Below, piece after piece: positions 42,961 through 44,324 of a stretch of 64,000 nucleotides of DNA. The notes under the pieces are model-generated. The model was not told the DNA's origin. It saw only the letters and a program-made list of their open reading frames with translations, and did no database searches. Position 1 is the stretch's first letter. Each line of letters opens with the position of its first letter. The translations under genes and the position numbers were made by a program. Source of the DNA: an uncultured Gammaproteobacteria bacterium (GTDB lineage Bacteria; Patescibacteriota; Microgenomatia; UBA8517); assembly GCA_964429215.1 (NCBI GenBank), contig CAYSAY010000003.1, positions 8,369 through 72,368 on the forward strand, written 5' to 3'.

Positions 42961-43443
42961 TTATGAGGCGTCTGTCCCAACTTTTAATATTTCGTCTGCT
43001 TTCATTCTTGCTTGTGCCATCAAATTAATTTCATTTCCAGAAGTCACAGAAAGGACAGCGAATGGTAAATGATTTTCCGCTAAATCAAATGCAACATCGG
43101 CTGGTAACTCTCTTTTACCTAAATGGCCTAATGAAAAAAAATAAACTCCTGATGTAACTTGATAGACTTTATGTTTTTGTGAATCTATTTCGTAAAAGTA
43201 AGACCCTTCTTTTCCGTTGAATCCAATTGTTTTCTTATTTTTGCCTGCATCTTCCGCCATAACTTCACATTTTCTTTGAATTGTACCTTTCCACATCTCT
43301 GTTTTCATTTCTTTAACTCTTTCAGGTTCAACTGACTCCAATTTTTTCTTACATCTACCAACCGCAACAAATAATTCAACCACGTTATTGAAATTCTTTT
43401 GCTCTATGTCTTTCTTAAACTCACCCAGTCCTCCTAATTCCAT
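42961..43443 (-). CDS. Hypothetical protein (160 aa)
   Basis: ORF with the conserved 27-nt motif about 130 nt upstream. Confidence 0.45.
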   Translation of the reverse strand: MELGGLGEFKKDIEQKNFNNVVELFVAVGRCKKKLESVEPERVKEMKTEMWKGTIQRKCEVMAEDAGKNKKTIGFNGKEGSYFYEIDSQKHKVYQVTSGVYFFSLGHLGKRELPADVAFDLAENHLPFAVLSVTSGNEINLMAQARMKADEILKVGTDAS

Positions 43444-43569
43444 ATGTTTATATTATAACTCTTGATGAAGTAATTCTACCTAATTTATTTCTACTTGTAA
43501 TCATTCTTTCTGTATTTGGCTTAGGAATAGCTACTTTGAAGATAAAATCAAATTGTGGGACGGAGAAAT

Positions 43570-43596
43570 GCATGTCCCTACTGATAATCCCATAGA
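43570..43596. promoter_or_regulatory. 27-nt conserved upstream motif, copy 1 (GCATGTCCCTACTGATAATCCCATAGA)
   Basis: Matches 44298-44324 at 25 of 27 positions. Confidence 0.5.
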
Positions 43597-43634
43597 GGTA
43601 TTTTAACATATAACTTAAGAGTTAAATCGTTATT

Positions 43635-44198
43635 TCATTCACACCCTGGTTTTGGTAATAATTTACCTCTAGCTATAGTAAAACCTTGTCGATTGAGACC
43701 TCGTTTAGGTGGATAGTATTCAATATTTGGATGATTATGGGTAGAGTATTTTTTTACTGAGTCATTCCAATTATAGGAAGTTTGAATTGTTAAGTTTTTA
43801 TCTGCACACAGTCTATCGTAAAAACTTTCGCTCCAGTTTTCCCCCATCACAATCATTTCCGGCAATCCAAGTCTCCTTCTTTCTTCCGTATATGCAATGA
43901 TTATTTCTTCAACAACACCCCTTAATACGTCTGCATCAGTATGGTAAGTATCACTATCTAACAATTTAACAGGTAAAGTAAGCATGTCATCTTTATAGCT
44001 CGGAGTGATAAATATACCATGTGCTTCGGCTTCTTTAAAATCAGGTAAATTTGGAAAATAAGTTGGAAAACTATTCTGGGTTAGTCTCTCCATAAATGTT
44101 TTGAAGGCAAATTCATTAGATAAGCCACCAGTTAGATAAGATAAATCAACGGTCTTAATTACCGGCATTGTTTCTAGCCAATGTTTTTCTGTCACCAT
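43635..44198 (-). CDS. Hypothetical protein (187 aa)
   Basis: ORF with the conserved 27-nt motif about 100 nt upstream. No confident family assignment. Confidence 0.45.
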   Translation of the reverse strand: MVTEKHWLETMPVIKTVDLSYLTGGLSNEFAFKTFMERLTQNSFPTYFPNLPDFKEAEAHGIFITPSYKDDMLTLPVKLLDSDTYHTDADVLRGVVEEIIIAYTEERRRLGLPEMIVMGENWSESFYDRLCADKNLTIQTSYNWNDSVKKYSTHNHPNIEYYPPKRGLNRQGFTIARGKLLPKPGCE

Positions 44199-44297
44199 AA
44201 TGTATTATAACCTATAATTATGTATAAATCGACACTTAGCTAATTTTGTTTTAAGAATTACCTTTAAAGATGAAATCAAATTATTGGAGAGAGTAAC

Positions 44298-44324
44298 GCA
44301 TGTTTCTACTGATAATCCCATAGA
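44298..44324. promoter_or_regulatory. 27-nt conserved upstream motif, copy 2 (GCATGTTTCTACTGATAATCCCATAGA)
   Basis: See copy 1. Confidence 0.5.

Follow-up and report, generated by a model that had tools for sequence, protein, structure and literature searches.

Why should two neighbouring genes of no recognizable family be preceded by the same 27-nt sequence? The question arises from a 64,000-nt stretch of contig CAYSAY010000003.1 (assembly GCA_964429215.1), called here the window, in which an earlier note had found the motif ahead of two consecutive minus-strand open reading frames (ORFs) of 160 and 187 aa and had taken it for a shared operator, promoter or 5′-UTR element of a two-gene module or, alternatively, for the terminal repeats of a small inserted cassette. 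The answer that we propose, with a probability of about 0.8, is that each copy is the crossover region of an attL, the two being serial scars of large serine recombinase (LSR) elements, which insert into the 5′ end of ychF in Microgenomates, bacteria of the candidate phyla radiation (CPR). The insertion point would be the Gly6 codon of ychF together with the first base of codon 7, with GGGA as the core, and the window copies may be read as fossil attachment (att) sites, one an intact attL and the other a decayed attL.

RESULTS

The 27-mer is the start of a widespread unit

The two 27-mers stand where they had been placed, at 43570–43596 and 44298–44324 (plus-strand coordinates), and agree at 25 of 27 positions, with an identical 18-nt core on the minus strand, CTATGGGATTATCAGTAG. 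They lie 127 nt before the ATG of the 160-aa ORF (42961–43443) and 100 nt before that of the 187-aa ORF (43635–44198), both on the minus strand, and are the sole matches at three or fewer mismatches in the window, none being found in 100 dinucleotide-preserving shuffles. The repeat that the earlier note described is therefore real, but it had been under-measured: about 85 nt, not 27, are similar on the minus strand, beginning with a −10-like hexamer and reaching AATTTGATTT[T/C]ATCTT, and blastn aligns the two copies at 84 % identity over 63 nt. Each 27-mer begins 2 nt before an ATG, which itself stands 6 nt after a −10-like box (TGTTAAAAT or TATAAT). On the minus strand copy 1 (43570–43596) reads TCT-ATG-GGA-TTA-TCA-GTA-GGG-ACA-TGC, that is, a ychF-like start (the host arm), then GGGA, where the crossover lies, and the opening nucleotides of a recombinase tail (the element arm).

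The 27-mer proved to be the first 27 nt of a unit of about 160 nt, all named sources of which are Microgenomates or Patescibacteria; a metagenome scan with the conserved core yielded at least 29 loci carrying it. The whole genome collection, scanned with the 18-mer, returned 10 scattered single matches in unrelated phyla, which we take for chance hits and which were uninformative. The first part of the unit repeats the ychF promoter and ATG together with about the first six codons; the second, joined to it at GGGA, is an open frame of 40–60 codons, set at −1 relative to that ATG and in many cases without a start codon. By profile search a locus holds one to five units, all on the same strand and with a different gene after each; in L017 three copies fill three successive intergenic gaps. 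Arrays run right up to ychF in the window, L018, L022, L026/35, L038, L047, L052 (an NCBI Microgenomates metagenome-assembled genome, MAG) and L056. The motif is accordingly widespread and not bound to particular genes, a finding that the earlier note had itself named as one that would refute its reading, since units precede genes for an MFS transporter, a GH10 enzyme, three GNATs, and HAD, HD and DHH proteins, besides ParB-CE and proteasome-like proteins and many unknowns; no recombinase is found among the genes directly behind units.

Evolutionary rates, calculated on 24 unique units, change frame at the join. The segment from ATG to GGG has a ratio of non-synonymous to synonymous substitution rates (dN/dS) of 0.22 in the ychF frame and above 1 in the other frames; from the A after GGG onwards it is the −1 frame that is coding, with a dN/dS of 0.45 up to the core and of 0.15 in the tail. 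The median open length of this −1 frame is 47.5 codons, compared with 8 in shuffles, and in 10 of the 24 units the frame holds no ATG, GTG or TTG. GGGA is present in 22 of them, AGGA and GGAA standing in the remaining two. The N-termini encoded by the units copy YchF N-terminal variants on other contigs (MSLSVG, MGLSVG, MALSV and MSQLSCG), and the unit in L023 is alike in 35 of 40 nt to the window's own ychF 5′ region. A profile of the open frame collects 130 predicted proteins of 48–111 aa, all annotated as hypothetical, without a Pfam domain and, where named, from Microgenomates or Patescibacteria MAGs; the starts given to unit proteins by gene callers are the TG of the TGnTAAAAT box. The tail has the consensus D.[HL]F[TS]VP[QT]FDF.FK..[LI]PK.NKER.I..R[DN].LG[RQ]I..., and its AlphaFold2 (AF2) model is a C-terminal β-hairpin (predicted local distance difference test score, pLDDT, 86–94) with no match in the PDB. 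Decay among units forms a continuum, many copies being visibly on the way to loss.

Two further observations concern individual members of this family. In L033 (2877–3048; the same sequence as L042 and L048) ATA replaces ATG, and TGA stands where all other units have Arg, between DYLG and IVASKVP; this unit may be a decaying scar or may belong to a genome that reads TGA as sense. A search of a representative library gave a local match between residues 1738–1770 of the 2500-aa protein P0138 and a 53-aa tail ORF (E = 1.7e-5, 33 % identity), which may be spurious.

Recombinase genes beside ychF continue into the tail on reconstruction

The tail is explained by loci at which the element is still present. 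In L054/L055 an LSR of 547 aa with Resolvase, Recombinase and Zn_ribbon_recom domains abuts ychF; it matches the phrog_95 integrase at E = 2e-68 and is preceded, in L054, by a 57-aa excisionase-like helix–turn–helix (HTH) protein of the HTH_17 type (phrog_66). Its ORF runs through the ychF start region in the −1 frame, ending in ITEKLGYEPIGG followed across the junction by NSWVTKCR and a stop, and ychF stays intact as MSLSVGIVGLPNVGKS. Homologous recombinases in L044 and L029 have the same position, frame and orientation next to ychF, and at all three loci a unit lies upstream of the ychF start, at a distance of 9705 bp (L054), 10171 bp (L044) or 7654 bp (L029). A Resolvase/Recombinase/Zn-ribbon gene is thus present at one end of the segment in L054/55, L044 and L029, and absent from the window. 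When the left side of the recombinase–ychF junction and the right side of the unit (attR-left and attL-right) are joined at the Gly codon, uninterrupted ORFs of 587 (L054), 582 (L044) and 583 aa (L029) result, each ending in the tail, the integrated-state lengths being 547, 550 and 543 aa, respectively. The ORFs rebuilt at three loci therefore identify the units as attL and the recombinase–ychF junctions as attR. Both junctions share the short GGGA core and combine host (ychF promoter, ATG and about six codons) and element arms. In addition, LSR 3′ remnants in frame with the tail occur just upstream of ychF in L028 and P0134 (L056–58). Of the insertions in L054, the one closest to ychF is intact, and older partial units lie distal to it; in the window, likewise, the distal copy is the decayed one.

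If the unit is an attL carrying a detached recombinase end, then the missing start codon, the constant −1 offset, the conservation of GGGA and the continuum of decay are all accounted for, and the protein-like conservation of the tail would follow from tails having diverged while they were part of active recombinase genes. One alternative is that the unit is a free-standing small gene (50–60 aa, a β-hairpin) with its own promoter, moving along with accessory genes and expressed where it stands, for example as a regulator or adaptor of the downstream gene, the likeness to recombinases being secondary. Gene callers do predict 130 such proteins, the tail combines a dN/dS of 0.15 with a frame open in 23 of 24 units and a confidently modelled C-terminal β-hairpin (pLDDT 86–94), the unit's stop is usually close to the cargo start, and the window copy has an ATG in frame. 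Against this, 10 of 24 units have no start in the frame and an in-frame stop often lies within the −10 box; a 7-nt spacer puts the called starts, which are the TG of the TGnTAAAAT box, out of frame; the frame is exactly that of the recombinase and is contiguous with it on reconstruction; many copies are decaying; and purifying selection is accounted for if the divergence arose within active recombinase genes. We consider a free-standing gene unlikely.

For the integration of LSR elements at ychF we propose the following course. In the excised form attP would lie inside the 3′ end of the recombinase gene, whose frame would cross, at −1, a spare ychF promoter, ATG and about six codons, and then continue for 40–60 more codons, the tail. 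Integration would set the spare promoter and start before ychF (attR), so that ychF stays whole, and would shift the host's old ychF promoter and start to the far end of the element, fused there to the detached recombinase tail (attL, the unit); the leftmost cargo gene of the element would stand after attL. New elements would land beside ychF and older ones would lose their recombinase by deletion, leaving arrays of attL unit and cargo gene. For L054, whose source metagenome is JGI 3300037086, the attP junction is predicted to read ATCGGTGGGA joined to ACGGCCATTTTGCTATCCCACAATTTG, and the matching empty attB to read displaced promoter-ATGTCACAGCTCTCGTGCGGG joined to AATAGTTGGGTTACC. What the proposal draws on is sequence comparison, namely the anatomy of the units, the arrays, the recombinase–ychF junctions, the continuity of frame and presence or absence in a relative; from these we infer that the recombinases act at these sites, that the elements are excised, that the promoters are active and in what order the events took place.

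The window locus as a putative fossil array

The window would be a fossil array of this kind, running from the YtxH terminator through a decayed attL, the 187-aa gene, an intact attL, the 160-aa gene and a replacement promoter to ychF, all on the minus strand. The YtxH-like gene (44394–44615) lies upstream of the array, and its intrinsic terminator (44348–44381) forms the distal edge. The putative older attL (44253–44336) has TATAAT at 44328–44333, a 6-nt spacer, ATG at 44319–44321, the MGLSV codons and a degenerate tail of about 60 nt, with 27-mer copy 2 (44298–44324) inside it; nhmmer matches it over hmm positions 6–91, and tblastn reads YGIISRNMRYSLQ, a stop and FDFIFK. With stops in the coding frame it is a decayed remnant, so that only the copy before the 160-aa gene is intact (132 bits in nhmmer for the whole unit, as against 15 bits for the copy before the 187-aa gene). 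The 187-aa gene (43635–44198) has its own TATAAT box 5 nt before the ATG. The intact attL (43448–43608) follows. Its left arm (43576–43608), the displaced ychF-type promoter and start, consists of a TGTTAAAAT box (43600–43608), a 6-nt spacer, ATG at 43591–43593 and codons 2–6 (MGLSVG) up to the GGG of GGGA; its right arm (43448–43576), in frame −1 relative to that ATG, is the detached recombinase 3′ end of 42 codons and a stop (DMHFSVPQFDFIFKVAIPKPNTERMITSRNKLGRITSSRVII), and copy 1 of the 27-mer (43570–43596) spans the crossover between the two. The 160-aa cargo gene (42961–43443) has a TATAAT box 8 nt before its ATG. The equivalent of attR (42920–42957), in which the inserted DNA provides ychF with a replacement promoter and start (TGATAAAAT, 6 nt, ATGGGGTTAAAAATTGGGATAGT), forms with the left arm at 43582–43608 a direct repeat of 20/27 nt that flanks the 160-aa cassette. 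The intact integration target, ychF (41968–42942), is followed by rpsF, ssb and rpsR, a context also found in L018, L052 and L056. Both window copies retain a −10 box with an ATG 6 nt on, and the displaced promoters probably still fire toward the cargo genes.

The closest relative, L001, has the order YtxH, 186-aa gene, ychF, rpsF, ssb, rpsR, without either unit and without the 160-aa gene, and so offers an empty or partly empty site. In L001 ATATGTTAAACTACCTCATATGGGATTAAAAATAGG is the ychF upstream region and start (MGLKIG...), and the window copy before the 160-aa gene matches this region through ATGGGATTA and then diverges; the first part of the motif is therefore a copy of the ychF promoter and start. 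The decayed unit is an extra segment of about 117 nt relative to L001, bounded by a 15–16-nt direct repeat of which L001 has a single copy. Homology between the window and L017 begins at the −10 box of the unit, continues at 82–89 % across the 160-aa gene and on through the next promoter and ATG, and ends exactly at GGGATAGT. Of the earlier idea of a terminal-repeat cassette carrying the 187-aa gene, it stands that an inserted cassette is involved, but L001 has a counterpart of the 187-aa gene and lacks, instead, the 160-aa gene together with its unit, and the two copies are better read as serial attL junctions of serine-recombinase elements than as the two ends of one cassette.

A separate observation concerns the target itself: codons 5–8 of L001 ychF (4490–4530) read ATA GGT CTT GTG, without GGGA, and the corresponding window sequence (42900–42942) reads ATT GGG ATA GTA. 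The ychF gene of L001 may be a non-permissive attB.

The comparison with L001 also bears on the possibility that no site-specific recombination took place at all, a ychF-promoter segment having been spread by homologous recombination or duplication as a kind of ‘mobile promoter’, with the recombinases near ychF coincidental. In its favour, the window–L001 crossover is not at a fixed site but inside the ychF-like region, after ATGGGATTA; each of the two insertions is flanked by an imperfect direct repeat, of 20/27 nt in one case and of 15–16 nt in the other; and the two window copies look homogenised. Against it stand three independent recombinases, all next to ychF and alike in frame and orientation, each on a segment of 7.6–10.2 kb that has a unit as its far end, a recombinase ORF that runs into the tail on reconstruction, and GGGA in 22 of 24 units with the coding frame switching at that very point. 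We therefore regard this explanation as distinctly improbable.

Genes found behind the units

Neither the 160-aa nor the 187-aa ORF has a family match in Pfam, NCBIfam, PADLOC or PDB sequences, and a search of 5.8 billion protein clusters turned up 3 relatives of the 187-aa protein and 5 of the 160-aa protein. The segment HGIFITPSYKDD noticed earlier in the 187-aa protein is present. The 160-aa protein gives an AF2 model with a pLDDT of 71.7 and no PDB fold match (E 0.5 or worse); three homologs are found directly behind a unit (window, L017 and L018), and the gene is missing from the syntenic L001. The 187-aa gene is probably the cargo of an older insertion. Its L001 homolog (186 aa, 84 % identity) occurs without any unit, and that in L051 sits in another gene context.

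Other settings of these genes were noticed. In L020 (3020–3180) a 156-aa homolog of the 160-aa cargo follows directly on two apparent adjacent tRNA genes (by eye), with no unit; this setting would be another classic integration hot spot and suggests that the 160-aa cargo family moves between kinds of site. In L018 a second 162-aa ORF and a Fic-domain gene (2658–3146 and 3231–4220) lie just upstream of the pair of unit and 162-aa cargo next to ychF. In L039 (oriented, 3231–4472) a 413-aa ORF after a two-unit array has an HSDRGSEF…NDNALVESKNG motif and no Pfam match at E ≤ 1e-4; it looks like a DDE (rve-type) transposase.

Promoters, leaders and gene starts

A −10-like TAnnAT box 5–8 nt before the ATG is found at 19 of 68 long ORFs in the window (12 of them at exactly 6 nt), compared with 8 of 288 internal ATGs, and a Shine–Dalgarno (SD)-like motif at just 5 of 68 gene starts. 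Because this architecture of box and ATG is enriched at gene starts and SD-like motifs are few, window ATGs with a nearby −10-like box are most likely leaderless starts. It may be noted that ychF is the integration target here and that gene starts are mostly leaderless-like across the 64 kb; YchF regulates the translation of leaderless mRNA, according to work cited in PMC12641178.

The promoter idea of the earlier note survives to this extent, that the motif does include a promoter-proximal element; a shared dedicated regulator is not part of it. We find a cis-regulatory RNA leader or operator common to both genes very hard to credit. The motif does stand just after −10-like boxes before both genes and is identical at 25 of 27 positions; one copy, however, is degenerate, and elsewhere the unit precedes about 28 unrelated genes, which argues against a dedicated operator or 5′-UTR co-regulating a two-gene module. 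Nor is there an RNA signal: the window leaders have no Rfam match at the gathering threshold or at E ≤ 10, the fold energies of both are no better than those of shuffles (z +0.5 to +1.9), and RNAalifold on 17 homologous units gives 8 pairs without compensatory changes and no structure beyond an invariant 5-bp hairpin. Least credible of all is that the unit encodes one protein, MSLSVG plus the −1 frame, by programmed −1 ribosomal frameshifting or transcriptional slippage at GGG_A, which we dropped once the recombinase ORF was seen in that frame: the coding signal does move from frame 0 to −1 exactly between GGG and A, the sole universal start codon is in frame 0 and ATG–GGG indels are always multiples of 3, but a slippery heptamer of the form X XXY YYZ is absent, the sequence being N GGG AYN with a free base before GGG, the 5-bp hairpin without covariation is the one structure downstream that could be considered, and the switch is fully accounted for by a recombinase ORF lying over a spare ychF start.

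Other candidates were rejected as well. Derivation of the tail from the N-terminal domain of YchF, suggested by eye from NFPF/QFDF and PVPDERL/PKxNKERL, received an hhalign probability of 0.14 %. An AbrB/SpoVT-like fold for the tail found no Pfam match at E ≤ 10, the model being a β-hairpin and nothing more, with no PDB match. An integron cassette system would need an attC-type hairpin and a tyrosine integrase, neither of which was found, the latter among the array and flanking genes scanned. The enzyme of an archaeal SSV-type suicidal integrase system does not correspond either, for here it is a serine recombinase of which just the C-terminal 40–60 aa are detached, and the resemblance is functional only.

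Some other genes deserve mention. The YtxH-like gene of the window (region 44394–44887) starts at TTG in the ORF list (73 aa), and its 89-aa L001 ortholog has a clear SD-like AAGGTGGTGA before an ATG; the start in the window is probably further upstream than listed. A DUF948-like small membrane protein precedes this gene. In L001 (9972–10667) and L052 (16312–17010) a release-factor gene (PCRF, RF-1) is called at just 231–232 aa, possibly a prfB split by programmed +1 frameshift.

DISCUSSION

Several points weigh against integration of LSR elements as the origin of the repeat. Within the window, the boundary of the left flank shared with L001 falls after ATGGGATTA and does not coincide with GGGA, and the two copies have identical, chimeric-looking 5′ parts; this breakpoint and this identity indicate that homologous recombination or gene conversion between units has also shaped the array. 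No recombinase gene is found in the 64 kb by tblastn, so that the mechanism is read here from relatives, and the status of the 187-aa gene as cargo is uncertain, since L001 carries the 186-aa homolog without a unit. Elsewhere, the arrays in L017, L023 and L039 have neither ychF nor a recombinase on the contig, and the strong conservation of the core is in part an ascertainment effect, the core having been the search pattern. The full-length recombinase ORF of about 585 aa is a reconstruction: no protein of that length with the tail occurs among the 130 and 35 family matches, which would have represented the excised attP state, and viral contigs yielded no unit with the core pattern and no excised form with the core pattern, the recombinase or the tail profile.

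Site-specific integration by LSRs, restoration of the target gene by the incoming element and serial accretion at one site are well established, and phiC31, Bxb1, A118 in comK and the Ccr recombinases of SCCmec are familiar examples of integration by serine integrases. The elements described here share with such systems the Resolvase, Recombinase and Zn-ribbon domains, the small HTH excisionase-like neighbour, a conserved host gene as target, a short attL/attR core (GGGA here) and the restoration of the interrupted gene by the element. They differ in that attP would lie in the recombinase's own 3′ coding region, with the last 40–60 residues exchanged (587 to 547 aa in L054), in the spare ychF promoter and start set at −1 within the recombinase ORF, in the ychF 5′ end as target and in their CPR hosts. 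The literature searched held no account of this element, the unusual feature of which is an att site inside the coding region of a bacterial serine recombinase.

Two known arrangements come close in this respect. In 2013 Broussard et al. reportedly described integration-dependent immunity in mycobacteriophages, in which attP falls within the repressor gene, at its 3′ end. There, as here, an attP in the 3′ end of a phage or element gene gives different C-termini in the integrated and excised states; in the mycobacteriophages it is the repressor that is remodelled, the integrase is a tyrosine recombinase and the functional consequence was shown, whereas here a consequence is a possibility. Integrases of the SSV1 type also have the att site within the integrase gene, and integration likewise detaches a piece of that gene to the other end of the element. 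Those are, however, tyrosine recombinases of archaeal viruses and plasmids, aimed at tRNA genes and inactivated when their gene is split; in the present case a bacterial serine recombinase keeps all its catalytic and DNA-binding domains together, and only the C-terminal tail is split off. A review describes the ‘suicidal’ type, with the att site within the integrase gene, as exclusive to archaea and to tyrosine integrases (PMC8371274).

The arrays resemble genomic-island accretion and integron arrays in having att-derived repeats between unrelated genes of the same orientation beside a fixed anchor, the newest nearest to it; unlike integron arrays, they show no attC-type hairpin (fold z > 0) and no IntI, and the repeat is a hybrid of host promoter and start with a recombinase fragment. 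As for the target, pneumococcal prophages integrate immediately upstream of ychF, with int abutting ychF, and a defective prophage was reported to influence ychF expression; their attB occupies the intergenic space between a DUF951 gene and ychF, and the integrase of PPH005 is counted among those of the tyrosine type (PMC8637289). Those prophages show neither a duplicated ychF start nor a scar array.

A further suggestion is more tentative, and we would sooner doubt it than rely on it. Integration may remodel the recombinase, from about 585 aa with a conserved β-hairpin tail when excised to about 545 aa with a short, out-of-frame, ychF-derived end when integrated; if the tail matters for activity, stability or directionality, it could serve as a sensor of the state of integration, and the displaced ychF promoters could serve as ready-made expression signals for cargo genes.

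For the window, these results turn ‘co-regulated unknown genes’ into leftover cargo of old mobile-element insertions, and make the stretch from the YtxH-like gene to ychF a variable hot spot for accessory genes; in itself the window is an ordinary relic of mobile elements. The 130 or more ‘hypothetical small proteins’ of public databases would be detached recombinase ends, not to be annotated as genes. The set of serine integrases, a class of enzyme used in genome engineering, would gain natural candidates for attB and attP. For the Microgenomates, the relatives define what may be an integration system of the CPR, of LSR elements aimed at the first codons of ychF and carrying a spare promoter and start. 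Should the tail prove to matter, CPR bacteria, whose mobile elements are poorly known, would offer a bacterial serine-recombinase counterpart both to the archaeal ‘suicidal’ integrases and to integration-dependent immunity in phages.

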